A stretch of 64,000 nt of DNA from Bacteroidales bacterium. GTDB lineage: Bacteria; Bacteroidota; Bacteroidia; Bacteroidales; F082. The DNA lies in assembly GCA_029983675.1 (NCBI GenBank), contig JASBYY010000004.1, positions 6,497-70,496 on the forward strand, in the 5' to 3' direction. The notes beneath the pieces are model-generated. The model was given only the letters and a program-made list of their open reading frames with translations, searched no databases and was not told where the DNA came from. Both the position numbers and the translations under genes were made by a program. How positions within the stretch are numbered: the first letter of the stretch is position 1; every line of letters begins with the position of its first letter. Below, piece after piece: positions 338 through 35,849 of the stretch.

Positions 338-2935
338 TCAACGGATTACGGTGATTCGCCGTGTAACCTCACCGTTGTTCGTCTGGATTTTCACCATATA
401 CAAGCCGTTTTCGGCATTGCCGAGATTGACGATGGCCCTATCGCCACTGCATTCAGAGTCATATACATGCTGTCCCAACATGTTGAATACCGAAACATGC
501 TGCAAGCCTTCACCTTTCACAGTAAAGCTTTGTTTTGCAGGATTGGGATAAACTTCAATCTGATCGGATTCTGTTTCGTTCACGTCGGTGGGTGAATAGT
601 AAACACGTAGATAGAACACATTCGGCTGATATTTGTTATTCGCAGGAGCCGACGTGCAGTCCGTTTCATTATAATAGGCATATACCTGATAGTAATAAAA
701 TCCTTCTTGCAGTGAAGAGTTGTCGGTGTAAGACGTCGCATTGGCACCTAACAGCTTGATACGCTGGTATTCTCCACCTTCGGCCTTACGGAAGACGAAG
801 TAACCGGTGAGTCCATTGGAAGGTTCTGGCTTTTCCCACAGCAGCTTGGTCTTAAACAACGAACCGGTCTTTTCGTAATCGAGATTTCTGGGAGGATTGC
901 ATCCTTCTCCTGATGTGGCGCATGATTCGTTAGAGGCATCGCTTTCTCCGCTGTTGCAGAGGGATTTCAAATAATAACAATGACCGCCGAGCGGCACATT
1001 TTGATCGACGAAAGTCATCCCGTCGGTTATCAAACGATAGAGTTTTCCATCGCGATAGAGGTTGTAGCCGTATTCGGGCGTTCCAGCAACATCCCATGAA
1101 ACCGTGATGGTGTTTGCATTGCCGGAATCCGTTGTAGCGACCACATTGGTGGGCGAAGCGCAAGTGCCTGTGTTACCGCAACCGTTATTGACGGAAAGGA
1201 ACGTGCCAGGTGCAAGGTTGTTGGAAGAACCCGTGTAGGTGTACACCGTGGTGCCTTCAGAATTCTTAATGATGAATGTCATATTCGAAACGCTGTCAGC
1301 AGCAGCCGCTGGTGGAGCCCACACAAAGGAGATATTGCCAAGCGGCATATCGACAGTGACTGTTGAAGGCGTGGAACTCGTGGTGGTGACTTTGTCAACA
1401 AGAGAACCGGCTGCGTTGAAAATACGAATGCAGCCGCCACGCCAACCTTGGAACGAAGTGGTCTGCATGATAATCGTCCAATTGCATGAAGGGCCGATAA
1501 AGGTTTCAGTTTTCACTGTTTTTCCATGTGCGCCACTCTGAACGGCATATACTTCATATTCAAACTTATCGAAACGCGGCACACTATTGTCAACATAGGT
1601 CATGTTGGCACCGGCTGCAACATTATTCTCGGTATAGATGATTTCACCATCTCTCTTGACAACAATCTGGTCTATCGTGGAAATTGAAGTGTTGTTAAGG
1701 GTTTTGGAGGGATTGGTCCAAGTGATGGTTGCGGAAAGTTGATCATTGGGTGCAGCCACGACATTCAGATTTGTCGGCGCCATGAGTGTGTTATTGTAAA
1801 CATCAATCGGGACGAAGTTGAAAATGGCAGCTTGACGGACAGAATAATCCATGCCGTCGAAGTCAAACCAGCCATCGCCGCTTCCACCCCAGCCCCAGTT
1901 GAAGTGGAACAGGTCCTCGGAATTATAACCGTCACAAATGAAAGCGTGACCGGCATTTTGATTGGTTCTACCGGAATAATACAACGGCCAGCCCATATCA
2001 AAAGATTCTTTCAGCTTGTCGCGCCAAACCTCATACGAAAATGAATTTCTGTTCAACAGCTGGGCCTGGTTTGAGTATTTGAAATACTGGTAGATTGCAC
2101 CGGGTACATCCTCACTAAAAGCTCCGCTTCCCGTACCATCAGTATCGTATCCCATATTGACAGCTACACCACAGTGCCAGCTCAATAAAGCGACGGCATC
2201 GATTTGCTCGGGTGTGGAAGTGCTTGTAAGGGCATCAACCGTGTTCTCCCAATCATAAGTCGTGGCACCAAAATTCACGGTTTGTGTAGGATAGGTCGGA
2301 GGCGTGTATGAATGCGAACCCTGACCCTGCAACGGATGATTCCAATGCGACATGATCTGCGCCATTGCCGTGGCAACACAGCCGGTCACGGCATGTCCAC
2401 CCGAAGCCCATGAAGCGGATTGCTCCGGACAGAACTTGTTGTACGGATAAACTTGGTTCCACTTCTCCGACATCAAGATACCTGTCCCACGACTGTTGTC
2501 GCGAGATAACATGTAGCCGTTCGAAAGCACATTTTGCCATTCGGCAACAATCATCGGAGCAGCTGCGGTATTTCTGGATTTACTGCGGCTCATGTTGTCC
2601 TGTAGTTCATCCAAACAAAAGCGGAGACCGTCAGGAACGTTGTTCACATCAAAACTACTTTCCTCGGAATAGCCGATAATGGGACGATGGGTGTCTTCAC
2701 CCGATACAATGATAAATCCTTCATTACCAACATTGAAGATGTAATAAAGCGCATCTCCTCTGTCGGAAGTTGCTGTTTGAACCAAGGTAAGCTCTGTCCC
2801 ACGAAGGGAAAGATCAAAGTGGGTTTGGACAAACTGTTGTCCTGCAATCTTTGCCTTACTGACATCAACAGGATCTGCATGAAGCAAAGTGATGCCGAAT
2901 ATCAAGGCAACAATGGTAAATACGTACTTTTTCAT
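338..2935 (-). CDS. Secreted C10-family (streptopain-like) cysteine peptidase with Ig/FN3-like repeats and a T9SS C-terminal sorting domain
   Basis: 865 aa with an N-terminal signal peptide (MKKYVFTIVALIFGITLLHA). The catalytic Cys context GCVATAMAQIM and His context AGHAFICDGY are typical of peptidase C10. The C-terminus (VYPNPAKQSFTV...GLYMVKIQT...) looks like a Por/T9SS sorting domain. Confidence 0.85.
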   Translation of the reverse strand: MKKYVFTIVALIFGITLLHADPVDVSKAKIAGQQFVQTHFDLSLRGTELTLVQTATSDRGDALYYIFNVGNEGFIIVSGEDTHRPIIGYSEESSFDVNNVPDGLRFCLDELQDNMSRSKSRNTAAAPMIVAEWQNVLSNGYMLSRDNSRGTGILMSEKWNQVYPYNKFCPEQSASWASGGHAVTGCVATAMAQIMSHWNHPLQGQGSHSYTPPTYPTQTVNFGATTYDWENTVDALTSTSTPEQIDAVALLSWHCGVAVNMGYDTDGTGSGAFSEDVPGAIYQYFKYSNQAQLLNRNSFSYEVWRDKLKESFDMGWPLYYSGRTNQNAGHAFICDGYNSEDLFHFNWGWGGSGDGWFDFDGMDYSVRQAAIFNFVPIDVYNNTLMAPTNLNVVAAPNDQLSATITWTNPSKTLNNTSISTIDQIVVKRDGEIIYTENNVAAGANMTYVDNSVPRFDKFEYEVYAVQSGAHGKTVKTETFIGPSCNWTIIMQTTSFQGWRGGCIRIFNAAGSLVDKVTTTSSTPSTVTVDMPLGNISFVWAPPAAAADSVSNMTFIIKNSEGTTVYTYTGSSNNLAPGTFLSVNNGCGNTGTCASPTNVVATTDSGNANTITVSWDVAGTPEYGYNLYRDGKLYRLITDGMTFVDQNVPLGGHCYYLKSLCNSGESDASNESCATSGEGCNPPRNLDYEKTGSLFKTKLLWEKPEPSNGLTGYFVFRKAEGGEYQRIKLLGANATSYTDNSSLQEGFYYYQVYAYYNETDCTSAPANNKYQPNVFYLRVYYSPTDVNETESDQIEVYPNPAKQSFTVKGEGLQHVSVFNMLGQHVYDSECSGDRAIVNLGNAENGLYMVKIQTNNGEVTRRITVIR

Positions 2936-3191
2936 TGGATTAAGTTATTATAAGTTGTTGTCTTTTCTTTTTCAACCGCAAATATAATTAATTTTTGCCA
3001 TCGTGGTTAACAATCCGAATTGATTTTTTCGAACCGGTCTTCTTCAGTAGCCGTTTGCTGTTTATCCCAAAAAACGAATACGGCTCACAGCGATTACAGC
3101 TTTCCAATAGGCAATATGGCAAATGGCAGAAAACAAGCAATCACGACAACTATGCCGTGATTGCCATTTAATTACAAAAGCTCCCCAAAGG

Positions 3192-5483
3192 TCAGCGATC
3201 GATGATAAAGCGTTTTGAAAACGTCCCCTGCCCTGTTGTGATACGAACCGTGTAAATGCCTGGTGCAAAAGCCGAAATATTCAGTTCATTATCATCGGTC
3301 TGCGTTTGTTGTGAATGCACGCATTGCCCCATAATATTTATGACATCGATTTGTTCGGCGCTCTCGGCATGAACATTAAGCTCACGTTGTGCAGGATTCG
3401 GATAAAGAACGATCTTGGATGCGTCCGTTTCGGTTATTGAAGTCACTTCCACATGCAGATAGTCGGTCTGCGTTGCAGCATTCATGGCATACTGTGATTC
3501 ACAATAGGAATGTTTGGCTGTCAGCCTGTAGTAGTAGCTGCCGGTTTCAACCTCATCGAAATACGCCAACTCGGTACCGTCAACCTCTGCAACCTTTTCC
3601 ATGTTGTTGAGGTTCGTTCCCCTATATACATAATACTTATCGGTCTCTCCTTCGGCCGCTGACCATGTGAGTTGTGTGCCAAACTTGCCACCTTGCCATT
3701 GATATTGACCTGAAAGGTTCATGGGCGGCTGGCAATTGGCGCATTGATTGTCCTTTGTAAACAAAGTGCCGTTCAATCCGGTCGAAGCACCGTTATAAAT
3801 GTAAACCGTGGCGTTATTCTCATCTTTCAATATGATGGTCAATGAAGAAACAGGCGTACTCGGAGCTTTCCATGTCAACGAAATCTCGCCTTCCGGCATA
3901 TCAAAATCCAGTACTCCATTGCCTGATGATGTAAGTGTAAATTCCTCAATGACTGTTCCTTTTGCATTCTTGACACACACTGCGCCTCCATTCCAGCCTT
4001 GGAAGTTCGTGGTGGCCCCCAGCAAACGCCATCCGCATGAAGGTCCAAACTGCGCCGTGGTAGAGGTTCTACGCCCCTTTCCCTTGTCGGACACCGCATA
4101 AATCTGGTAGGTATAATGGTCGAAATCACCCACCTCGTCCACAAAACTCATGCTTTCACCCGGAGTGACATTGTTTTCTTCGTGAATGACCGTTCCATTG
4201 CGAAGCACAACAACCTTGTTCAAATTCTCAAGCGGCGCATTGCTCAACGTTGTGCTTGGATTTTTCCATGAAACAGTGGCTTTCAGTGCATGGGCATGAT
4301 CCGGCACGACTTCAAAGTTATCCGGTATGGCCGGAAGTCCATCATACACATGATCCGGAATCATGTCGAAAATGGCTGACTGGTTTTGGTTGAAATGATA
4401 ACCAGGTGCATTGAGCGCATCGATGGCATAAAAACCGTTGCCATATCCTGTCCAGCCCCAGTTAAAATGGAAATAGCGGTTGTCATTGTAGCCGTCGCAA
4501 ATAAAAGCATGACCGCCAAGATTGGCATCATGACCGGAATAATAGGCAGGAAAACCTTCATCGAAATTGGCAATGAGCAAATCCTCCCATTCCGTCTTCG
4601 AATAATTGTCGCGATTACGATGCGACATTGCCGAGGTGTATCTGAAATAATCCTTCATGGCACCGGGTACATTATTCGAATAGGCTCCGCTGCCATCATA
4701 TCCGTAGCCCATATCCACCGCCACGCCACAATGGTACATCAAAAGCGCAACCGCTTGTATTTGCACCAACGGTGAACCTGACGAAAGGTTGTTCGGCATA
4801 TTGGCCCAGTCATAGGTAGTCTCGCCAAAATTCACCGACTGTGTCGGAAAACCATTTGGGGTATAGGAATGGCTTCCTGTGCCCGTTTCAGGATAATCCC
4901 AGTACTTCATGACCATGGCCATGGCATCGGCGACACATCCGACATACACATGTCCACCAGGACCTAAATTGTGAGGCGGGCAATAGTAGTTATATGGATA
5001 ATCCTGATTCCACATCGTGGCAATCAAAGCGTTGACACCTTTTGTTTCGCGGGTTCCATCGATGGTACCATTGCTGCGCACCCACTCCCATTCCTGTTGA
5101 ATTTGAGGGTCAGCGGGGATACCTTTTTCGATGGCAAAAGCCATTTGTTCTTTATAATGATTAAGGTAGTAGCTTAATCCGTCAGGAGTATTCTCTGCAT
5201 CAAAGCGTCCTTCCTCTGAATAACCCAGAATGGGTTTTGCAATATCGTCAGCCGAGACAATGACAAAACCATGGTCATAGTTGAAGACGTAAAGGCAAGG
5301 CGTTCCGTTGTCGAGTGACAAAGTAAAGACATCTTCCACATCGGCAATTTGACGTGCCGAAGCCAGATTCTCTCGGGCGAAGCTCAAGCCCAGCTTATGC
5401 GCCTCTTGCAGGCTGACGGGAGCCGCCCATGCCGAAACAGCCATCAACACGGCTGAAAATAAGGTAAATAGTGTTTTTTTCAT
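3192..5483 (-). CDS. Secreted C10-family cysteine peptidase with a T9SS C-terminal sorting domain (paralog of 338-2935)
   Basis: 763 aa with a signal peptide. Contains GCVADAMAMVM (Cys) and GGHAFICDGY (His) motifs. The C-terminus LYPNPAQRELNV...GIYTVRITT is T9SS CTD-like. It is collinear with its neighbour along the whole length. Confidence 0.85.
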   Translation of the reverse strand: MKKTLFTLFSAVLMAVSAWAAPVSLQEAHKLGLSFARENLASARQIADVEDVFTLSLDNGTPCLYVFNYDHGFVIVSADDIAKPILGYSEEGRFDAENTPDGLSYYLNHYKEQMAFAIEKGIPADPQIQQEWEWVRSNGTIDGTRETKGVNALIATMWNQDYPYNYYCPPHNLGPGGHVYVGCVADAMAMVMKYWDYPETGTGSHSYTPNGFPTQSVNFGETTYDWANMPNNLSSGSPLVQIQAVALLMYHCGVAVDMGYGYDGSGAYSNNVPGAMKDYFRYTSAMSHRNRDNYSKTEWEDLLIANFDEGFPAYYSGHDANLGGHAFICDGYNDNRYFHFNWGWTGYGNGFYAIDALNAPGYHFNQNQSAIFDMIPDHVYDGLPAIPDNFEVVPDHAHALKATVSWKNPSTTLSNAPLENLNKVVVLRNGTVIHEENNVTPGESMSFVDEVGDFDHYTYQIYAVSDKGKGRRTSTTAQFGPSCGWRLLGATTNFQGWNGGAVCVKNAKGTVIEEFTLTSSGNGVLDFDMPEGEISLTWKAPSTPVSSLTIILKDENNATVYIYNGASTGLNGTLFTKDNQCANCQPPMNLSGQYQWQGGKFGTQLTWSAAEGETDKYYVYRGTNLNNMEKVAEVDGTELAYFDEVETGSYYYRLTAKHSYCESQYAMNAATQTDYLHVEVTSITETDASKIVLYPNPAQRELNVHAESAEQIDVINIMGQCVHSQQTQTDDNELNISAFAPGIYTVRITTGQGTFSKRFIIDR

Positions 5484-5574: not shown

Positions 5575-6840
5575 TCAGGTTTTCTGTTCTTTCTTTTTTG
5601 CTGCGGGAAACAGAATATTATTCAATATCAACCTATAGCCGGGCGAGTTGGGATACATGTCGAGTTCGGTGGGCGGATCGCCGACAATATGTCGGTAATC
5701 CTCCGGGTCGTGACCGCCAAGAAAAGTCCAGAAGCCATTGCCGAAGTTACCATGGATATAGCGGTCTTCGCCAAAAGCCGCATTGTCGCCAAGTACTACC
5801 ACATCGGGCTTTACAAGGGTTTTATCGAACGCAGTGGTTTGTCCCATGAAACCCTTGATGAGTTTTTCGTGGCACTGGGTCAGCATGGTGGGCACAGGAT
5901 CCCATTTGGCCGAAAAGTCGAACAGCAAAAAATAGTCGTTGTCTTCGCGAACCATCTGCACACGTCTCTCGGTGACATCGATATTGGAGATTTCATATTC
6001 CTGAGGGTTTGTCGAAACAGTAAAGTCGGTGAAAGCGAAGCAGTTGTCATAATCTACCCGCTGCGGGTCGCCGTTGCGAATAGGATCGCCGTCGAACATC
6101 ATGTCGCAAATATCAAGGCCATCGGCTGACAATGCCACATCGTAGCTGTCAGGGGCGGAACACATGGCAAACATGTAGCCACCTCCCGCGACAAACTCAC
6201 GGATTTTCTTGGCAACGGCAAGTTTCAATTGAGAGACCTTTGAAAAGCCCCAGCGTTGAGCCGTTTCGTTTTGCAACCGCACATCTTCCTGATACCAAGG
6301 AAAAGTGCGGTAACGTGCCCAAAACTTGCCGAACTGTCCGGTAAAATCCTCATGGTGCAGGTGCAGCCAGTCGTATGTAGGCAACACCCCTTGCAGCACC
6401 TCGTCGTCATACACCACATCATAAGGAATCTCGGCATAGGTCAACACCAACGTGACCGCATCGTCCCAAGGCAGATTGTTTTTGGGTGCATACACGGCAA
6501 TACGCGGCACTTTTTGCAGTTTCATTTCATCCATATTGACACCGGGATCGGCAATTTCGGCCAGAATAGCATCGGCTTGTGCATCGGCAATCACCTGATA
6601 CGAGACGTTACGCACCTTGCATTCGCGTTCTATCTTGTCGTGAAAGGGAATCAAATAGCTACCGCCCTTGTAGTTGAGCAGCCAACTGATCTCCACCTCT
6701 CGCTGCAACACCCAATAGGCTACACCGTAGGCCTTCAGATGATTGCTCTGTTTGTTGTCCATGGGAATCAGCAGATAAGCCGCATGTAACGGCATTATTG
6801 CTGCAAACGCCATCAATAAAACCAAAACGATTTTTCTCAT
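5575..6840 (-). CDS. Conserved secreted hypothetical protein
   Basis: 421 aa ORF with an N-terminal signal peptide (MRKIVLVLLMAFAAIMPLHA) and good coding appearance. I do not confidently recognise the family. Confidence 0.6.
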   Translation of the reverse strand: MRKIVLVLLMAFAAIMPLHAAYLLIPMDNKQSNHLKAYGVAYWVLQREVEISWLLNYKGGSYLIPFHDKIERECKVRNVSYQVIADAQADAILAEIADPGVNMDEMKLQKVPRIAVYAPKNNLPWDDAVTLVLTYAEIPYDVVYDDEVLQGVLPTYDWLHLHHEDFTGQFGKFWARYRTFPWYQEDVRLQNETAQRWGFSKVSQLKLAVAKKIREFVAGGGYMFAMCSAPDSYDVALSADGLDICDMMFDGDPIRNGDPQRVDYDNCFAFTDFTVSTNPQEYEISNIDVTERRVQMVREDNDYFLLFDFSAKWDPVPTMLTQCHEKLIKGFMGQTTAFDKTLVKPDVVVLGDNAAFGEDRYIHGNFGNGFWTFLGGHDPEDYRHIVGDPPTELDMYPNSPGYRLILNNILFPAAKKKEQKT

Positions 6841-26985: not shown

Positions 26986-27888
26986 CTATTTGAACTGTCC
27001 GTAACCCACATTGGTCTTGGCACCGACGCCGACAGTGAGTATGATTTCTTGAAAAAGTTGCGCTTTTTGGTTAGCATTTAAAGAGATTTTCCTTACTCCG
27101 TTGTTCGATTTAATTTCAACCGTACTATCCGTTAGTTTGAACCTAAATTCAAATGTAATGCCCGGCAATACTTTTATGAACATCAATGGAGTCGGATTTT
27201 TTAGAGGATCGGGATGATGTGTGATAAAGTCACTGGCAAGGAACTTCTTGCTTTTTCCCGTTTTTTCAATGTTGATGACAGCATCGAAAAACACATCTTT
27301 CCCTTCGGCATCTTGTTTGCCAAAAATATCATCTTTCAACGTTTTTAATGCTTCGATATCGATATTCTTCAGCATGTTTTCCCATGCGTTCTTATTCTGT
27401 TCATCGGTACATCTCTTTTTTACCTCTTCAAGAATGAATTTTATCGTATCCAACGAGGTTTGATCAGTTTGATCTTTTTCGTTCTCAAACACACTTTTCA
27501 ATACACCTTTGATGGAACTGCCCGGAATAACAGGTTGTCCGGTTGTATGGTCAAAATAAAAGCCTATCTTGATATCGCCTTTTGCATTACTATCGTGCGT
27601 ATAGCCTGAACCACATAATAATCCGGGATAGGTTGTAGCCAGATTAAAATGATGGGAAGCCGCATTATTCTCAATTTGCGTGTAATCTTTCAATGTGTTA
27701 GCAAAAACAGCTTTATAGAATATGTCAAAGGGAGTGACTTTCGCATCTTTGGGAATATCAATGAACAACCTCTCTTTTTCATTATTTTGAGCAGGTGTAA
27801 ATTTTATTTTACGCTTAATCGCATCTTCCGTATATAATCTTTTATATACCATCAAGCCCACATTGGGCGCTATAAAATTCCATGCCAT
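26986..27888 (-). CDS. cmr6: Type III-B RAMP protein Cmr6
   Basis: 300 aa with the RAMP motif PGSSIKGVLKS and a C-terminal glycine-rich loop GVGAKTNVGYGQFK. It is the last gene of the cmr1-6 series. Confidence 0.85.
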   Translation of the reverse strand: MAWNFIAPNVGLMVYKRLYTEDAIKRKIKFTPAQNNEKERLFIDIPKDAKVTPFDIFYKAVFANTLKDYTQIENNAASHHFNLATTYPGLLCGSGYTHDSNAKGDIKIGFYFDHTTGQPVIPGSSIKGVLKSVFENEKDQTDQTSLDTIKFILEEVKKRCTDEQNKNAWENMLKNIDIEALKTLKDDIFGKQDAEGKDVFFDAVINIEKTGKSKKFLASDFITHHPDPLKNPTPLMFIKVLPGITFEFRFKLTDSTVEIKSNNGVRKISLNANQKAQLFQEIILTVGVGAKTNVGYGQFK

Positions 27889-27890
27889 AA

Positions 27891-28286
27891 TTAGTCATTT
27901 TTAGGTTTAGGTGTGGGGTAGGTACGAATAGCTAACTTTAACGCGATGGCACATTCCTGAATCTTCTTTTTCAGACATTCGTCATTATATCGGGTAATGA
28001 CTTCTTCCAATAAATGTTGTTCGTTGTTGAATATGCCTATTTCTGGGCTTTGCAGCATTTTCTCAAGTGCTACCGGTATAAGGCTTCTATCTGCATTGGT
28101 GGTTTGCTCCGCACCTTTTGAATAAAATATCAATGTGGGAAGCAATCCCGATGATATGAGACTTGCACCAAAAGAGGAGATATATCCATTGTAAGTTTTG
28201 TCAATTTCTCCGTTTTTAACTATACCTAATCTGTTGTCTTCCAGCACTTGTATGGCGACAGGGATATATTTTTCTATATTTCTCAT
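27891..28286 (-). CDS. cmr5: Type III-B small subunit Cmr5
   Basis: 131 aa predicted helical protein between cmr4 and cmr6. Its start overlaps the cmr4 stop by 4 nt. The assignment rests mostly on size and position. Confidence 0.7.
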   Translation of the reverse strand: MRNIEKYIPVAIQVLEDNRLGIVKNGEIDKTYNGYISSFGASLISSGLLPTLIFYSKGAEQTTNADRSLIPVALEKMLQSPEIGIFNNEQHLLEEVITRYNDECLKKKIQECAIALKLAIRTYPTPKPKND

Positions 28287-29104
28287 GACTTTGTATTTTT
28301 GAACTTGATTTTATGAAATTTACATAACCCATAGCCTACGCTGCTGTTGGCTCCGATTTGAATCGGTTCTTCTAAGAGTTCCTTTTCAAATTCCGAAAAG
28401 GTTGCGTCGTCTAATAAACCCTGTTTGGGAACCATATAAGTTATAAATATCGTTTGGTGAGGAACCACCTCCTCGTACCAAAGATTTTTGTCCTCATCCA
28501 GGCGATTGCGGGCGATTACAGGTAAGTTTTCAGCATAATTTCTGAATTTATCATCGCTTACCAGGGCATATTGTTGATCAAAAGCTGTAAAATTAATGTC
28601 AACTGTGTCTGAAAATGGCGTTGAATAATCTACCCTTTGCAAATCATCGTCTTCCAGAAATATCCTGTCTACAAGGCCTTCTTCCTTTGTAAACAGTTTA
28701 TCTGTTTCTGTTGGTAGTTTCAGTAGCTCTTTATCAAGAATCATTTTTGCTTTCTCGTTCACAAATTCCACATTTTGAGGACAGAATGTGAGAGCAAACT
28801 GACGATGTGAACATCTTACGGGTAAAGCTACCAGATCAGCATTCAAAAAATTAAGGTTGCCGCTTTCGGTATCATTATCATTATTTGTTTTCTTACCGAA
28901 TAGTAGGTTCGTTTTTTGATCGGTTTTCCCCCAAACGCTCTCAAAATGTTCTCTGAGAGATCCCTTTAAACTTGATGCGTGAATGGTAGGATAATTGAAT
29001 ATCGTGTCGCGTTGTACTAATTTGTCCACGATCCCGTAACTGGCATCACCGCTCCCTACATGTAGGTTGGTTATACACTGAATTAAATACGCTTGTGTTG
29101 TCAT
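28283..29104 (-). CDS. cmr4: Type III-B backbone RAMP protein Cmr4
   Basis: 273 aa. The N-terminus is TNLHVGSGDASYGIVDKLVQRD, followed by PTIHASSLKGSLREHFE and a C-terminal G-rich loop IGANSSVGYGLCKF. Confidence 0.85.
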   Translation of the reverse strand: MTTQAYLIQCITNLHVGSGDASYGIVDKLVQRDTIFNYPTIHASSLKGSLREHFESVWGKTDQKTNLLFGKKTNNDNDTESGNLNFLNADLVALPVRCSHRQFALTFCPQNVEFVNEKAKMILDKELLKLPTETDKLFTKEEGLVDRIFLEDDDLQRVDYSTPFSDTVDINFTAFDQQYALVSDDKFRNYAENLPVIARNRLDEDKNLWYEEVVPHQTIFITYMVPKQGLLDDATFSEFEKELLEEPIQIGANSSVGYGLCKFHKIKFKNTKS

Positions 29105-29110
29105 TTTTTG

Positions 29111-30178
29111 TTATTTTTTAATGGTTTGAATTCTATTAAACCCTATATTTCGGGCATTATTACTCTTATTGAATAATTCTTGGGCCTTTTGCATTTCATC
29201 TTCATTTTCAAAAAACAATATGCTGCCGCGTTTAAGCAAATTATAACGATAGCTCATTTTATACCCTTTTGAAAAGCTGCTGTAATTCTCACTGTTGTTG
29301 GAGCTATGAAGATTTCGGAAAGAGATGTTTTCATTGATTGCAAAAACCACGTGTTCCCATACTTCTTCTTCAACAAAACAGTCGGAAATACAATAAATAG
29401 CCGGTTTAAGGCGTGGCGGAAGGTTAAGTTTAAAATCGGTACGATTACCGCTGCATTCATTTACTTCAAGGAGGAATAATTGCTGTTCGGCTCCCATGGT
29501 AATGAATTGTTTATCATGGCTTAAATTACAATCGATTTCAGCATCAAAGGCAAAAGACCACCCTTTATTCAACTTATACATTACCTGCTTGTAAAATCCG
29601 TCATCTTCCGTTTTTCCTTTTTCCCCTTTTTTATTGCCCACGGTTTCATGTTTGATAAACACAAAATCCGTATCATTTTCTTTATCTTCATCTTTAAAGA
29701 ACTTGAAAGTACTATAATCTTTTACGTTGATAAATGTCGGATTATAGCCAACTTTCGCATCGTACCCTTTCAAATAGTAATTGTTATAGAGTTCTTTTAA
29801 TTCAAATTCTTGATCAAAAGGTGCAATGATATATTTTTCACTTTCTCTAAGAAAATAAAGTGGTGATATTTCATTTATTATTCCAAATTTCTGCTCCGTT
29901 TTTCCATCTTTACCCACGAAGCCATAAATAAAACTATTTTCACCAATCAGATCATTGGCTTGAGATTCTTTTTTGTTTTTACGCGGACTGAGGCAACCGT
30001 TTTTCATCAGTAGATAGTAACGTAACGTTCCAAGCAGGGTGGTTTGTTGGGGATATAATTCAGACCTCACATAGTAGTCCATTTCAAACTTGCCCGGTTC
30101 TCCTTTTTTTTCAGTATGTTTTTCCCCTCCAAAAAAATAGGCATTTACCGGGGTGAGCTTTATTTGATAATTGTTCAT
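29111..30178 (-). CDS. cmr3: Type III-B protein Cmr3
   Basis: 355 aa with N-terminus KLTPVNAYFFGGEK typical of Cmr3. Position and size fit, and there is a 4 nt overlap with the cas10 stop. Confidence 0.75.
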   Translation of the reverse strand: MNNYQIKLTPVNAYFFGGEKHTEKKGEPGKFEMDYYVRSELYPQQTTLLGTLRYYLLMKNGCLSPRKNKKESQANDLIGENSFIYGFVGKDGKTEQKFGIINEISPLYFLRESEKYIIAPFDQEFELKELYNNYYLKGYDAKVGYNPTFINVKDYSTFKFFKDEDKENDTDFVFIKHETVGNKKGEKGKTEDDGFYKQVMYKLNKGWSFAFDAEIDCNLSHDKQFITMGAEQQLFLLEVNECSGNRTDFKLNLPPRLKPAIYCISDCFVEEEVWEHVVFAINENISFRNLHSSNNSENYSSFSKGYKMSYRYNLLKRGSILFFENEDEMQKAQELFNKSNNARNIGFNRIQTIKK

Positions 30179-31821
30179 TGATCTTTTGATTTTTTAGGTT
30201 GAATAAACTGATAGTATCGCAATATAGTGAAGAGGATGTCTTTAAAACGTTTATTTTGCTTGTATTCTTCTTCTTTGCTGCATACCGTAAGATAATCTTG
30301 TTTTAAAACTTTTATTAGCGATGTAAAATAATCGGTAAAAGTGTTTTTCTCTTCATGTATTTCTTCGTTGAAGAAGTTTTCAATGAAAGCATCAATCCGA
30401 TCATTTCGTACCGCATGGATGAAAGTCGTGAAAAATACATCGTCTTTCAACCGCTGAATCATTCCGCTGAGCGTGTCTTTTTTATCTTTTCCTTGCAGCT
30501 GTAAGGTGAGCAATTCATAAATTCTCTTAGCGGAAGCGGTTTTTGACTTGTCGATAAAACACTCCATATACTGACCGCTATGTTTTTGAAAACGAACGCT
30601 TACACCATTTTTATTTGGGAAAAGCTCCTTGTCCTGTTTGCACTTTTCCAACATGTTATGGGCTTGTTCCATCGCTTCACGCATGGGAAATTTATAATAA
30701 GAGAGCATAAAACCATACGATAAAGTGGGAATGGTTACTCCTTGCTCTTCGGCGTATTGACCCAATGTATCGTTGAAATCCTTATCTAAATCTTTGATAA
30801 GGATTGCCAATGATTTGAGATAATTGTCTCCATTGTAAGCAATGGGTAAAAAGGCCAAAATGTCTTCTCCTCCTAAATATATGGCACTCCCACCGTAGTT
30901 GTGGATGCTCTCTTCCGCTTTTTTTCCGAACAGAAGAAGTTTTTCGGAAAAAGTTTTTAATTTTTCCCTATCATTGGCAACACTGCTGAGCAAAGCACCA
31001 ATGTTATCACCATCGGCATACAGCACAGCGTAATATTTATGATAATCCTGCATCTTGTCTTTGAAAACGTCGTTCTTTTTCAACAAGTCAATAATCTGGA
31101 TATCTTCGTTTTTAAAATCTTCTTCTAACAACCGATTGTATGTTGTTGCATCTGCTTCTTTTAACAAGTCTGCAGTAGATATCTCTGCGATTGATTTGAA
31201 GTGCCGTCCTTTTTCATCTCCGAAAGCATCTTTTTTCAGAGCGGTGTTTTCGTTCCATTTCGTAGCAAAATAATCAATCAAAAAATTTGAGTTGATATCA
31301 AATGCATATCTTTTATTTAATTCTTTGTTGTCTAACAGATTGTTAAGGATTTTTAAAACCGAATTATCAGATTTCCCTTCTTTATTCTTAGATGTTGTAA
31401 TAGAGGTCAACTCTTTATCCGTTAAAGAAATTTCAACAATATGGAGATTCAAGTAGTTGCGTAAAAATGCAACAATGTCTCCGTTTTTCAGTGTTGCGTT
31501 TTTACAACAGATGTCATCTGCAAAGAACTTTATCGTATTATCAACAAAGCCTTGAATATCTAATTTTGATTTATTTACAAAATATAGGCGATCGGCATAC
31601 AGCCCAGCCCCATATTTTCCTTTATTCACCCCTTTCTGCGTATTGTCATCTAAAGGTTTGTCATAGGGTAACAGTATCTCCCAATCATTGTCTATAGCCT
31701 GCTCAAGTATTTTCCTCATGAAAAGTGAAAAGAAATAGCTGGCCGCCCATATGCTGCGCGTGCGTTTTGCTTGGGTAAAGGTATCATATATGGGCCCAAT
31801 GGTTATTGCTGTGTATTGCAT
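30175..31821 (-). CDS. cas10: Cas10/Cmr2 large subunit, short form without an HD nuclease domain
   Basis: 548 aa. The palm/cyclase motifs are YAVLYADGDNIG (res 265-276) and YLGGEDILAF (GGED at res 317-320, nt 30862-30873). No N-terminal H..HD motif is present, since the protein starts directly with MQYTAITIGPIYDTF. Confidence 0.85.
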   Translation of the reverse strand: MQYTAITIGPIYDTFTQAKRTRSIWAASYFFSLFMRKILEQAIDNDWEILLPYDKPLDDNTQKGVNKGKYGAGLYADRLYFVNKSKLDIQGFVDNTIKFFADDICCKNATLKNGDIVAFLRNYLNLHIVEISLTDKELTSITTSKNKEGKSDNSVLKILNNLLDNKELNKRYAFDINSNFLIDYFATKWNENTALKKDAFGDEKGRHFKSIAEISTADLLKEADATTYNRLLEEDFKNEDIQIIDLLKKNDVFKDKMQDYHKYYAVLYADGDNIGALLSSVANDREKLKTFSEKLLLFGKKAEESIHNYGGSAIYLGGEDILAFLPIAYNGDNYLKSLAILIKDLDKDFNDTLGQYAEEQGVTIPTLSYGFMLSYYKFPMREAMEQAHNMLEKCKQDKELFPNKNGVSVRFQKHSGQYMECFIDKSKTASAKRIYELLTLQLQGKDKKDTLSGMIQRLKDDVFFTTFIHAVRNDRIDAFIENFFNEEIHEEKNTFTDYFTSLIKVLKQDYLTVCSKEEEYKQNKRFKDILFTILRYYQFIQPKKSKDQ

Positions 31822-31825
31822 GATT

Positions 31826-33238
31826 TTACTTCTTATTTAAATTACTCAATGAGGTATAACCAATTTTTGTTGACGCCATTTTCATAAAGTCCACAAGTGA
31901 AAAATCTTTTGGCGTTGACAAGATGAAATCTTTTTGTTTACTTTCTTCCAAAGAACACATATCATTTCTTTTATTTCTATAATCATGAATTCGGAAAATA
32001 AATTCTTTATCCTGGATTTCTTTTGACAACTCATTTCCTACCAAATAAACATTATTGTCAATAACCTTGAACAGAAGAGGTGACCGAAACCTTTCAATAT
32101 CTGAAGAGAGTTCATAGTAATGCGTTTTATCATTCTCATCGACAATGGTAGCATAATCATTTCTATGCATTCTTTCTGCCTCCTCAACAATTTCATCTCC
32201 TTTCAAAAACACACTAACGATAATAACATCTTTGTCTTTCTCATTATAAAGTTTAAACTCATATTTTGATGACAATCCTAACAATGCACGAATAAAATAA
32301 TATTGGAAAGTCTGTGGATCATTCCATCCTTTTTCTGTTTTCTCATTATTCCCATAAATTGGAGGTTTCTTACCCTTGAGATTAAACCCTTTCCCCCTAA
32401 TGCCTTGTTTTATTTTTCGTTTCTCCCAACGAAAACCTTTGCCAACAAAATATTCGAAAAGTATAGATTTTTTATATATTTCATTGCTATGTCGTGTCTT
32501 AGGTATATTTATACCTGATTTCAGCAACTTATAATCATCATTAATGGTTTGTAAAATCTGAACTATTTCAGAAGACTGTAATGTTTTTTTGTACACAAAA
32601 GAAAACTCTTGTTTCAATAATTCCTCATTATTTTTGAGTTCTTTATTTTTCTGATTGTACTCAATCTTTGTTGGCAAAAAACAACCGAAGCCCTTACTTT
32701 GCCGTGTGCCAAAATTTGTAGAAATGAAAAAAAGCTGTATGTATTTTAAAATTTCTGAGAAAAGATCTTCTTTTTTTGTTAGAATTAAAACGTTTGTGTC
32801 ATCACTTTCAACAATCCCTTTCTTTTCTATTTTGTTCCAATCAGCGATTACATTATGACTTTTTACTATTTGAGAATTCTGTTTTTCCTGTGCAAAAAAA
32901 GGACTGTTGCTTATTACCTTAATCTCTCGATTTTCAAGGTTTTTTGCATCGCTCCCTTTAATATATGAAGCCAATAAGTATTCAGTTCTGGTTGAATTGC
33001 TATTAATATCTATCCTCATCTTATAATCTAATGCCGGATGTTCTCCTTTGCCTACAAGCCATTTGTTCTCTTTGGCCGTATTGATGCCTTGTTGGTAGTC
33101 TCCGTTTCCCAATTTCGTCAGAATAAACTTATCCAACTTCGGCTTCACTTCGCTTGCCCGCAGGGTGGCTCCCTCCTGATCGTGCTGAAAGTGGATCAGA
33201 GGTGTGTGCTGTTTTAAAGTTACTTTTAATGTATGCAT
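31826..33238 (-). CDS. cmr1: Type III-B RAMP protein Cmr1
   Basis: About 470 aa counted from the ATG at 33238 (MHTLKVTLKQHTPLIHFQHD...). It has the G-rich loop TNFGTRQSKGFGCF and is the first of the cmr series. The track ORF extends to 33295. Confidence 0.8.
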   Translation of the reverse strand: MHTLKVTLKQHTPLIHFQHDQEGATLRASEVKPKLDKFILTKLGNGDYQQGINTAKENKWLVGKGEHPALDYKMRIDINSNSTRTEYLLASYIKGSDAKNLENREIKVISNSPFFAQEKQNSQIVKSHNVIADWNKIEKKGIVESDDTNVLILTKKEDLFSEILKYIQLFFISTNFGTRQSKGFGCFLPTKIEYNQKNKELKNNEELLKQEFSFVYKKTLQSSEIVQILQTINDDYKLLKSGINIPKTRHSNEIYKKSILFEYFVGKGFRWEKRKIKQGIRGKGFNLKGKKPPIYGNNEKTEKGWNDPQTFQYYFIRALLGLSSKYEFKLYNEKDKDVIIVSVFLKGDEIVEEAERMHRNDYATIVDENDKTHYYELSSDIERFRSPLLFKVIDNNVYLVGNELSKEIQDKEFIFRIHDYRNKRNDMCSLEESKQKDFILSTPKDFSLVDFMKMASTKIGYTSLSNLNKK

Positions 33239-33245
33239 AACAGTC

Positions 33246-33653
33246 TTATTTTTTAGTTTTTGAGTTTGCAGAATTAAGAATGATGGATAACCCATCGATT
33301 ATTTTTTTGTAGAGTTCAATATCATGTTCAAGCAAGGCTATCTTGGAGTTGTAAGTGTCTTCAATAGAACTTTTGTCTTTTCCCAATTTTTCGGTTTTCT
33401 GCTTTAATTCATTGATTTCATTCTGAAGTGTTTCATCAGAAGCAACATTCACCTTTGCAATTAGATTCCAGTATTTTTCCTGTTCAAACGACTTTGTTTT
33501 CATCTTTCGAGCAAAGCGATTCTGAATGCAAGGTTTTACAATATGTTTCAACAAGAACACAAGGGCAACTAATCCGATGACACCCCAACATAAAGACGGG
33601 ATGGCATTCACTACATTCTGCCAATCTACGGCTAATAATACCAAGTCTTTCAT
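33246..33653 (-). CDS. Small membrane-anchored coiled-coil protein, uncharacterised, embedded in the type III-B operon
   Basis: 135 aa with one predicted TM helix (AIPSLCWGVIGLVALVFLL) followed by a K/E/L-rich coiled-coil-like segment. Its ATG overlaps the CorA-like stop (ATGA at 33650-33653), and it ends 7 nt before the cmr1 ATG. Confidence 0.65.
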   Translation of the reverse strand: MKDLVLLAVDWQNVVNAIPSLCWGVIGLVALVFLLKHIVKPCIQNRFARKMKTKSFEQEKYWNLIAKVNVASDETLQNEINELKQKTEKLGKDKSSIEDTYNSKIALLEHDIELYKKIIDGLSIILNSANSKTKK

Positions 33654-35116
33654 TTTATCTTCCTTTTAATGATCAATATAACTCCAATTACTACTGAGGC
33701 AACAAAACCCATGAGAGCAAACTGATAACCCCAGATATTGAACCAACGGGACAATCCTCCGCATCCGTTCAATGCCGTGTTACTCATCCCGAAGATGCCG
33801 GCGACAACCGTTATCGGAACAAAAATCGTTGCAATCCATGTGAGGAGTGATACCGTATTGTTGACTCTACGATCTTCTCGCAAAGTTACATAGTTGTATA
33901 ATTCCTCTATTTCTTTATCCAGTTTTTCTACGTGTTCGTTTATTCGTAACAGCTTGTACAGTTTCTCATACATCTCAATGCCTTGATCTTGTGCCGAAAC
34001 CTCCCGGAAATGAATCTTGTTGACAAAACGGATGTATTCTTTGTACAAGGAACTCAATTTCAAGCTCAACCCTTTCTTGTTATCCATATTGCTGATGTTT
34101 GTCACCTCTGCCGAGAATCGCAAAATCGAGGCTTTTTGAACCAAAACAAGTTCGGACATCCGAGCATACTCTGTTTCAAAATATTGAATTAGAAAATTAG
34201 GACATGTTGTATTGGCTAAATAGACCATTGAATACCGTGACACACCATACAACGAGCACCATTTTTGCCAGCGTTCGTAGGTAGATTCCTTTATGAGTGT
34301 TTTCTGCATTTCCGTATTTTGGCAGCTCATACCATTCGGATTATCAACAAACAGAAACTCATACCAATTATTACTCATGATGAAGTCTTCGTACCCTCCG
34401 CCACAGAACTGATTAGCCCATTCATCGTTCTTATACCATGACAGCACAAACATCCTATCGTCAATAACCGGTTTCAGCTGAATATTAGCTGCCACTTCAT
34501 GGATCATATCCGTAATAAAATCCGCCGGTTTGTTGTGCGGTGTTTTGTTGTCATATCGGCTGAAATCTTCGCAATAGCCGGTTTCACGTCCGTGGAGTCC
34601 GATGAATTCCAATTTTTGGGCAATCAGAAAGCGATTTTCCACATCTTTGATAAAAGGTGGAAAAACTCTTCTGCCATACTGATTGATATTCAACACAGCC
34701 TCCGGGTCTGCATATCTTCTGTTTTCCATGAAAAATGATAGAACACCAACGCCGGTCGAATACAGGTTCAAGTTGATGGCTTTTACATTCAACTCATATT
34801 CTTTCCCGCCGGCACAAGTTATTTTATACAATACCTCTCCGTGTTTTGGCTCATTTCGTTCATAATGGCGAATTAAAGAACCGTTTGAACCGTTGTCATA
34901 CAAGGCCTCGTGAACAAATTCATAAAAATAGTTTTTCTCGTTGTACAAATCGTCCGATTCCTGATTATTGGCAGGTGTTGTCACTCTTTCCCAATTGTCC
35001 GAATCGGAATACTCGATTTTATTCAGGTCGATTTGTTCCGACAAGGTTTTCTCTTCAAAACCTCTAACATCCCATCGAAAGGGGAATTGAAAATTATGAT
35101 AACTATATTCCATCAT
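33650..35116 (-). CDS. CorA-like membrane protein (type III CRISPR-associated CorA effector candidate)
   Basis: 488 aa with a ~420 aa soluble N-terminal part. The C-terminal architecture is CorA-like: TM1 (LLTWIATIFVPITVVAGIFGMS), a short loop, TM2 (YQFALMGFVASVVIGVILII), then a basic tail KRKIK. The signature is GMS (nt 33782-33790) where canonical CorA has GMN. Confidence 0.75.
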   Translation of the reverse strand: MMEYSYHNFQFPFRWDVRGFEEKTLSEQIDLNKIEYSDSDNWERVTTPANNQESDDLYNEKNYFYEFVHEALYDNGSNGSLIRHYERNEPKHGEVLYKITCAGGKEYELNVKAINLNLYSTGVGVLSFFMENRRYADPEAVLNINQYGRRVFPPFIKDVENRFLIAQKLEFIGLHGRETGYCEDFSRYDNKTPHNKPADFITDMIHEVAANIQLKPVIDDRMFVLSWYKNDEWANQFCGGGYEDFIMSNNWYEFLFVDNPNGMSCQNTEMQKTLIKESTYERWQKWCSLYGVSRYSMVYLANTTCPNFLIQYFETEYARMSELVLVQKASILRFSAEVTNISNMDNKKGLSLKLSSLYKEYIRFVNKIHFREVSAQDQGIEMYEKLYKLLRINEHVEKLDKEIEELYNYVTLREDRRVNNTVSLLTWIATIFVPITVVAGIFGMSNTALNGCGGLSRWFNIWGYQFALMGFVASVVIGVILIIKRKIK

Positions 35117-35849
35117 TTATGATTTTACTAATTGATTCAACATAATTCTTTATTTCATCGGATGAGAAACGTCCTCTTGGCAGACCGAAGAAGCCGCTTT
35201 CTCCGCCCCCGTGAAACGCCCGTCCTGTTTTGACTTCCTCTTGAAAACAATTGACAAGTTGAGGTTGTCTTTCTCCATAATAGACCAATTCCGCATTGTT
35301 ATAAACCAACAGGTTCCGGAAAGGATACAGGTAATCGACTATGGGTGAAAACCTGGAAACAGAGGTATATACTATTTTTAGATTTCCCTTTGATACGGCT
35401 TGTCGAGCATCTTCTTCCGCTATTTTTTCTTCCTCTTCCGTTACACCTTGGGCTTTCCGATCCGCCTGCCTGATGGATGATATTTCTTCATCCGTTGCTC
35501 CCAAAGCCTTCATCCCTCCGATGTATGCCGAATCGTTAGCGACAACCAGTTGCTGCCGGCGGTTCAACGGTACGTGCAGTAGGTCGGCAACCTGCTCCAA
35601 TGCGGATTTTTTCCCAAAATAATCGTTGTGGTGGTCAATGCGGACATAATGTGCAGGCGGAAGAATGTCTTCTCTCAATTCAATACCGTAAAACAGATCG
35701 GTTTCGTTGATTTCAGCCTGATATGCACTGAGCGTTGCATTATTCCACGACAAGCCGTTATCATGAAAACATTCACCACTTGCTAACAACATGTCCCTTA
35801 TCGTAAGCATCTCCAAATCATGTCCACCCAATAGAAAGATTCTCTTCAT
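35103..35849 (-). CDS. DHH-family phosphodiesterase (NrN-like, CRISPR-associated)
   Basis: 248 aa with GGHDLEM near the N-terminus, a DHH motif (VRIDHHND) and a GGG motif (FHGGGESG) late in the protein. It overlaps the CorA-like start by 14 nt. Confidence 0.7.
   Translation of the reverse strand: MKRIFLLGGHDLEMLTIRDMLLASGECFHDNGLSWNNATLSAYQAEINETDLFYGIELREDILPPAHYVRIDHHNDYFGKKSALEQVADLLHVPLNRRQQLVVANDSAYIGGMKALGATDEEISSIRQADRKAQGVTEEEEKIAEEDARQAVSKGNLKIVYTSVSRFSPIVDYLYPFRNLLVYNNAELVYYGERQPQLVNCFQEEVKTGRAFHGGGESGFFGLPRGRFSSDEIKNYVESISKIINDGI

Follow-up and report, generated by a model that had tools for sequence, protein, structure and literature searches.

A conserved small membrane-protein gene between corA and cmr1 in CorA-associated type III-B CRISPR loci

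RESULTS

A short ORF located between corA and cmr1 in a type III-B CRISPR locus is a real gene under selection. The locus belongs to the window (the whole 64,000-nt stretch of DNA that was analysed), and the predicted product of the ORF is a single-pass membrane protein. The type III-B system itself is known; its small-protein component is conserved and, as far as the searchable literature goes, new. A small membrane ORF follows corA in ∼80% of related loci, the Bacteroides fragilis model locus among them, and is absent from searchable published descriptions; existing assays and structural work could thus readily include it, as an obvious and inexpensive variable. The case for the protein being an accessory or modulatory subunit of CorA appears to us evenly balanced. 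If the protein does bind CorA, the composition of the effector targeted by cryo-EM changes; if it does not, the family is a new one among the membrane proteins associated with type III systems.

Location of the small ORF and its junctions

Family scans gave the gene order of the locus as cas6b, nrn, corA, small ORF, cmr1, cas10, cmr3-6 and RT-cas1, with Cas10 of the HD-less kind (Table 1). The ATG of the small ORF (33653-33651) overlaps the TGA of corA (33652-33650) in an ATGA junction; its TAA (33248-33246) is followed by GACTGTT and then by the cmr1 ATG at 33238. Both features had been described in the original prediction, the overlap with the corA stop at 33650-33653 and the end of the ORF 7 nt ahead of cmr1, and both were confirmed. 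The cmr1 start site is backed by Cmr1 homologues, which begin at the position of 33238, where the product starts with MHTLKVTLKQHTPLIHFQHDQ.

In the ORF list cmr1 is 19 codons longer, beginning within the small ORF at an in-frame ATG (33295); the homologues do not support this extension. Because the homologous proteins begin at 33238, the cmr1 start may have been overcalled by automatic annotation (33238-33295, minus strand). A terminator-like hairpin at 33282-33296 was no stronger than expected from shuffled sequences.

The match of the Pfam CorA model to the window CorA (4.8e-11) is restricted to the C-terminal TM region. The CorA loop signature at 33782-33790 reads FGMS in the window and its closest relatives and FGMN or FSMN in more distant CRISPR CorAs.

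Table 1. Features of the window locus and of the B. fragilis-type locus L117 (coordinates are those of the respective sequence)
Sequence	Feature	Coordinates	Strand	Basis or remark
Window	nrn, CorA-associated DHH phosphodiesterase	35103..35849	-	PADLOC PDLC01149 DHH_CorA, 7.5e-71
Window	corA, CRISPR-associated CorA-1 effector, 488 aa, presumed partner	33650..35116	-	PADLOC CorA, 1.3e-130
Window	ATGA start/stop overlap of corA and small ORF, translational coupling signal	33650..33653	-	Sequence; recurs in related loci
Window	Small ORF, 135 aa, predicted single-pass membrane protein with long cytoplasmic helix	33246..33653	-	ORF list, dN/dS, 87 relatives, AlphaFold2
Window	N-terminal tail, residues 1-16, conserved W11-Q12, predicted outside the membrane	33606..33653	-	Positive-inside rule
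Window	TM helix, residues 17-35, AIPSLCWGVIGLVALVFLL, family consensus IPCLCWG...	33549..33605	-	Kyte-Doolittle 2.39
Window	Juxtamembrane conserved segment, residues 45-62, NRFARKMKTKSFEQEKYW	33468..33521	-	Family alignment
Window	Predicted cytoplasmic long helix/coiled coil, residues 63-133, variable and modular	33255..33467	-	AlphaFold2, half-by-half identities
Window	cmr1, 7 nt 3′ of small ORF	31826..33238	-	ORF list; only the first ∼230 nt are part of the corA-small ORF cassette
Window	cas10, cmr3, cmr4, cmr5, cmr6, remaining effector operon	26986..31821	-	Family scans
L117	nrn	2728-3507
L117	corA	3504-4979		491 aa, length equal to the presumed BfrCorA row
L117	Small ORF	4976-5455		159 aa, ATGA overlap with corA
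L117	cmr1	from 5469

Selection and sequence conservation

Values of dN/dS for the small ORF (Nei-Gojobori, seven close pairs) range from 0.10 to 0.33. A word-indexed search returned 11 relatives of its product with 37-98% identity (E 1e-15 to 1e-78), all annotated as ‘hypothetical’ or carrying no name. A HMMER profile scan of 1.84 billion representatives detected 87 clusters (E<=1e-10 for 47); these relatives are 71-280 aa long (nearly all <175 aa), and most align across most of the profile. Relatives of the same length are present both in the 1.84-billion-protein library and in a 5.8-billion-cluster index, and the conserved positions are distributed along the full length of the protein. The window protein, which is the seed of this family (alignment A3 and its profile), matches the profile over its full length, and its gene has the placement that characterizes the family, directly 3′ of a CRISPR corA and 5′ of cmr1.

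The small ORF is thus conserved in related loci. Purifying selection, the size of the family, strict synteny and the conserved overlap with corA strongly support the view put forward in the original prediction, that the ORF is an integral member of the operon and no artefact.

Searches of Pfam, NCBIfam, PADLOC and PHROGs with the small protein gave nothing above curated thresholds. Weak matches to Pfam coiled-coil families (Rab11-FIP3, ZapB, YqhG, UPF0449) were all sub-threshold, the best one scoring 17.2 bits against a cut-off of 31.9. A sequence search of the PDB with it returned only generic coiled coils (E>0.03), and the copy of the PDB searched contains no structure of a CRISPR-type CorA. 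The rod-like model had no match in Foldseek, a search that is uninformative for a single helix. Members of the CorA/MIT superfamily have two C-terminal TM helices with a GMN-type loop. The small protein falls outside this superfamily (PF01544), having no Pfam match and one TM helix instead of two.

A small membrane protein beside corA is unmentioned in the text of Chi 2023, Hoikkala 2024, Shmakov 2018 and Shah 2019 (an unlabelled arrow in a figure is possible). It is likewise unmentioned in the text of the papers on the SAM-AMP lyase, on the III-D2 structure and on CorA in VI-B/RT-Cas1 loci, and in the text of the 2025 CRISPR classification. In agreement with the original prediction, no such component is known from described CorA/NrN systems, within a full-text search of the key papers. 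The CorA-associated ‘cluster 96’ of Shah et al. was considered as the same protein and ruled out; it is a Methanococcus (archaeal) family with a DNA-binding C-terminus.

Synteny in CorA-associated loci

The order corA, small ORF, cmr1 was found in 13/13 distinct loci of family members, including members that are 25-37% identical. These 13 loci were drawn from L001-L012 (close similarity), L076-L079 (distant, 25-37%) and L069, L070/71 and L074/75 (reached from CorA). The −4 ATGA overlap was present at 10 of the 11 tabulated junctions of related loci.

To counter the ORF-based sampling we scanned metagenome contigs (without taxonomy) with a CorA alignment. The scan yielded 80 loci with 40-81% CorA identity, grouped into 50 CorA clusters at 90% identity, of which 47 were assessable. 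With the reservation that related loci are non-independent and that the second HMM (A6) includes some of the sequences scored by it, a small membrane ORF was located directly after corA in 38 of the 47 clusters (81%), in agreement with the ORF-based sampling. The family or superfamily HMMs recognized the ORF in 28 clusters (one TM helix in 22, two in 6), while 10 clusters carried, at the same position and with no HMM match, a small two-TM ORF with a charged helix. The −4 overlap was seen in 21 of these 38 clusters. The small ORF was absent from the other nine, where corA was immediately followed by cmr1 (six clusters) or by another gene (three clusters). As a control, the same procedure was applied to other large ORFs in these loci; 11 of 171 (6.4%) precede such an ORF.

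A survey of 401 genomes of the same taxonomic order showed a matching pattern on a smaller scale. A six-frame profile search of the 401 genomes was noisy from coiled-coil composition, with most weak matches within large unrelated frames; its informative matches were solely those adjoining corA (G398, G255 and G130).

Several individual loci deserve mention. The CorA of L101 is >=90% identical to those of L125/L131, yet L101 has no small ORF (a 68-nt gap is followed by cmr1), which looks like a recent loss. In L070/L071 an additional 125-aa ORF with a WG_beta_rep Pfam match (6120-6497) lies between the small ORF and cmr1. The small ORF of L017 (G255) is apparently split into frames of 80 and 62 aa, possibly by a frameshift, and corA of L019 (G398) contains an in-frame TAA; both loci may be decaying.

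Absence of the small ORF from L072/73, L081, L020 and L107-112 had suggested that an NrN-CorA fusion replaces the need for it. This idea was ruled out, as the small ORF is present together with fusion-length CorA frames (741-819 aa) in L085, L091, L129, L134, L136, L144 and L161. In two of these, L085 (small ORF at 3233-3514, 93 aa) and L091 (71 aa), the small ORF follows CorA frames of 741 and 758 aa, respectively, lengths sufficient for NrN-CorA fusions. A run of Asn residues at the end of the L085 small protein may be an artefact of assembly or low complexity.

The B. fragilis model locus

In E. coli, Chi et al. 2023 (PMC10600005) achieved immunity using Cmr1-6, Cas6, CorA and NrN as the stated components; CorA was toxic, and NrN was strictly required, which was termed unusual. 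The reconstituted immunity depended on CorA (PMC10600005). The text of that paper does not mention the small ORF.

The supplement of Chi et al. contains a CorA alignment as well as the synthetic genes for BfrCorA and BfrNrN, all of which we used as machine-read text with errors. Over its C-terminal 241 residues, the first row of the alignment is 91-92% identical to CorA of L113-L118 and L157; agreement with the published truncation primer led us to take this row as BfrCorA. Machine-read fragments of BfrCorA and BfrNrN are mostly 86-100% identical to L117 (65% for one short piece) and collinear with it. By these sequence comparisons, L113-L118 and L157 were identified as the B. fragilis-type locus.

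In L117 a small ORF sits between corA and cmr1 (Table 1). An AlphaFold2 model of its product (pLDDT 81.5) has two TM helices, the second extending into a long helix, and then a terminal helix; the design of a TM helix running into a long helix is the same as in the model of the window protein. Comparison by hhalign of the window family (A3) with the remote group to which the B. fragilis-type ORF belongs (A6) gave a probability of 96.8% and an E-value of 2.2e-10, a match anchored on the TM end and an H-E-x-x-M-K-E motif, the score of which may be inflated by coiled-coil composition.

The two systems share the order cas6b-nrn-corA-[small ORF]-cmr1-cas10(no HD)-cmr3-6. Their CorA proteins are ∼46% identical, whereas the small proteins differ in the number of TM helices (one in the window, two in the B. 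fragilis type) and are akin at the profile level alone. Because the component list of Chi et al. omits it, plasmid immunity in the E. coli reconstitution does not require the small ORF. The protein can therefore be a modulator at most and is not strictly needed in the pore, at least when the system is over-expressed.

Anatomy of the small protein

The top-scoring 19-residue hydropathy window of the protein (Kyte-Doolittle 2.39) comprises residues 17-35. The TM helix of the original prediction was thus recovered; the heptad-like pattern predicted to follow it was also found, though as a modest signal, with a hydrophobic fraction of 0.62 at the best a/d positions vs 0.49 in shuffles (p ∼0.025). 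Charges flanking the TM helix are unevenly distributed (mean K+R 0.48 in the N-flank and 3.02 in the C-flank), with the bias on the C-side in 43 of 44 members. The predicted topology has the N-tail outside and the helix in the cytoplasm, on the same side as the CorA sensor domain. The AlphaFold2 model, built from a 34-sequence alignment, is a single continuous helix of residues 11-133 (mean pLDDT 81.6); it predicts that the TM helix continues straight into a cytoplasmic helix of ∼95 residues.

Among family members W11 is nearly invariant, and the motif entering the TM helix is (V/I)-(N/D)-A-I-P-C-L-C-W-G. The juxtamembrane consensus is N-x-H-E-x-K-M-K-x-x-A-F-E-x-E-K-x-W, with K52, E59 and W62 conserved and E at position 48 in >=90% of members. 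Further motifs are L-K-Y...P, a frequent S-T-D-E and, close to the end, Y115-K-x-I.

At the near-invariant H-E, present in >=90% of members, the window copy instead reads F47-A48. It shares this deviation with its closest relative, L001 (dN/dS between the two is 0.10): residues 46-48 (33510-33518) are R-F-A in the window copy and C-F-D in L001 vs x-H-E in the family. From their sequences, these two copies may represent a functionally diverged sub-lineage.

Many relatives carry Cys/His clusters (CC, CCHC, HCGNH) in the N-tail predicted to lie outside (P0015, P0018, P0020, P0023, P0034 and L076-L079), which suggests metal binding, disulfides or lipidation in these proteins. The N-tail of the window copy has no such clusters.

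Inheritance with corA and mosaic structure

A BLASTN comparison of the window region from nrn to cmr1 with L007, L009 and L002 revealed a single block of 82-90% identity, extending from the corA start (or within ∼55 nt of it) to ∼230 nt into cmr1 (about nt 228). Where the block has ended, the remainder of Cmr1 is 34-40% identical in loci whose CorA is 86-90% identical; between the window and L007/L009 the Cmr1 identity is 37-40%. In a comparison of 45 pairs of loci, the identity of the small protein correlated weakly with that of CorA (rho 0.31, p 0.035) and not with that of Cmr1 (rho 0.10). Because the block spans corA to the start of cmr1, and because small-protein identity tracks CorA, if weakly, and does not track Cmr1, the small ORF travels with corA. 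The two genes are inherited as one cassette, separately from the gene for the phosphodiesterase and from the larger part of cmr1.

The block ends past the conserved HTPLIHFQ region of the Cmr1 N-terminus, which suggests a possible recombination hotspot inside cmr1. Upstream of the block nrn is not homologous, and L009-L011 have a DEDD-type (Rv2179c-like) exonuclease instead; between the window and these loci, whose corA-small ORF cassettes share about 90% nt identity, the SAM-AMP-degrading enzyme looks to have been swapped recently, the breakpoint lying where corA begins. Binding of the small protein to the phosphodiesterase was considered and is unlikely, given that near-identical cassettes lie beside either NrN or the unrelated DEDD enzyme.

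Identities of the N-terminal and C-terminal halves of the small protein are uncorrelated (rho 0.13). The pair L076/L078, for example, has 20% identity in the N half and 52% in the C half, while L078/L079 has 52% and 19%, respectively. In loci with 84-88% identical CorA the small proteins can be 26-37% identical, with just one half in common, and at least four C-terminal types recur in varied combinations. Natural short members of the family (71 and 93 aa) retain the TM helix and juxtamembrane part alone. Because the halves are mosaic and the short members keep only this part, the invariant core of the protein appears to be the membrane-proximal segment.

Among close relatives CorA varies most in TM2, whose coding sequence lies just upstream, and TM2 groups in the same way as the post-TM segment of the small protein; this co-variation can be explained by physical linkage alone.

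Possible role of the small protein

CorA is the sole other membrane protein in the operon and, to our knowledge, the only known SAM-AMP-activated effector. As a CorA accessory or modulatory subunit, the small protein would be a bitopic inner-membrane protein made together with CorA via the overlapping ATGA junction, with its short N-tail outside, one membrane crossing and then the cytoplasmic helix of ∼95 residues. The TM helix and the juxtamembrane motif would bind the CorA pentamer at its membrane domain; the cytoplasmic helix would oligomerise beside or beneath the CorA funnel, or its variable part would contact some fast-changing target. Such a non-essential subunit would tune assembly, stability or gating of CorA. 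The most plausible effect would be restraint of leak or toxicity until SAM-AMP arrives, where both the contact with CorA and the direction of the effect are what we infer.

The joint movement of corA and the small ORF and the conservation of the TM and juxtamembrane part give circumstantial support to the link originally proposed, tethering or gating of CorA. Against a subunit stand the absence of the small ORF from 9 of 47 CorA clusters, L101 included, and the replacement of the near-invariant H-E in the window copy. In addition, co-evolution is looser than expected for a tight subunit, with small proteins 26-37% identical where CorA is 84-88% identical.

A bolder form of the proposal, which we find doubtful, makes the small protein a third component that the SAM-AMP effector module has so far lacked. 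In native hosts it would assemble with the CorA pentamer and hold the pore shut, or set its threshold, until SAM-AMP arrives; its absence would explain the toxicity of CorA and the need for NrN in E. coli, and the shuffled coiled coil would be an interface in an arms race with phages.

It is unlikely that the protein is instead a membrane tether of the Cmr complex, with the coiled coil binding a subunit of that complex (Cmr1 or another) and SAM-AMP thereby being made beside CorA. The gene does lie between corA and cmr1 and ends 7 nt ahead of the latter, the C-terminal half and Cmr1 are both highly variable among loci, and Shmakov et al. 2018 (10.1101/270033) speculated that CorA is a membrane tether of type III-B systems. 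However, identity of the C half does not significantly follow that of Cmr1 (Spearman rho 0.18, p 0.23, 45 pairs), the short members lack the coiled coil entirely, and the recombination break falls within cmr1, the ORF moving with corA rather than with the Cmr genes. Recruitment of the Cmr complex to the membrane, an option raised in the original prediction, accordingly found no support, given this break and the lack of co-variation with Cmr1.

Unlikely too is a guard or decoy that shields CorA from phage inhibitors or senses them. This function would explain the hypervariable, shuffled helix: halves recombine independently (20-52% identity per half where CorA is 88% identical), and loss of the gene is patchy. 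Phage homologues or mimics were not found, however, with no PHROG match for the window protein and no tblastn match in 50,697 phage records; dN/dS of close pairs is <1, so positive selection is unsupported; and we know of no anti-CorA phage protein.

Turning from CorA modulation to an independent second effector or sensor, a Csx23-like protein in which a TM anchor carries an oligomeric helical domain that binds a signal or perturbs the membrane is quite improbable. The two proteins are alike in being small, in carrying a membrane anchor at the N-terminus that is followed by a cytoplasmic part of helical and probably oligomeric nature (60-90 aa; PMC11229360 for Csx23), and in belonging to signalling type III loci. 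On the other hand, sequence and fold similarity to Csx23 were not detected: no PADLOC, Pfam or NCBIfam match (E<=0.1) reached a family cut-off, bearing in mind that the PADLOC version may lack a Csx23 model, and the PDB gave no sequence or fold match. Csx23 has a tetrameric cA4-binding cytoplasmic domain, whereas the window locus has SAM-AMP-type components (CorA and NrN). The cytoplasmic part of the small protein is its least conserved part and modular, unlike a ligand pocket, and corA adjoins every copy with an examined neighbourhood. Immunity in the reconstituted B. fragilis system, moreover, needs CorA (PMC10600005).

Finally, it is scarcely credible that the peptide is irrelevant and the ORF only a means of coupling the translation of corA and cmr1 or of spacing them, or a spurious frame: the ORF is short, has tight junctions with two real genes and is dispensable for reconstituted immunity, but this explanation is contradicted by dN/dS of 0.10-0.33, by motifs kept across members of 25-40% identity, by same-length relatives in both large sequence collections and by a topology bias consistent in 43 of 44 members.

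Comparison with other small membrane proteins

Short bitopic proteins such as MgtS, MgtR, KdpF and AcrZ bind and tune the TM domain of a co-expressed transporter or channel; they are 30-50 aa long and have no long coiled coil. We know of no such small regulator of CorA-family channels. The small protein would resemble these regulators in concept alone, with no homology in Pfam or NCBIfam.

Csx27 and Csx28 of type VI-B systems are also small membrane proteins encoded beside CRISPR effector genes, and they modulate interference rather than execute it. They differ from the small protein in sequence (no matches), CRISPR type and TM count. In RT-associated VI-B1 loci, CorA was proposed as a replacement of Csx27 (PMC11662929).

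The layout of a TM helix followed by a coiled coil is shared with phi29 p16.7-like proteins (phrog_6682), to which the L076 member has a weak match (E 0.001). The window protein and two other tested members have no such match, and the family differs from p16.7 in having no DNA-binding C-terminal domain and no phage context; the L076 match is probably compositional.
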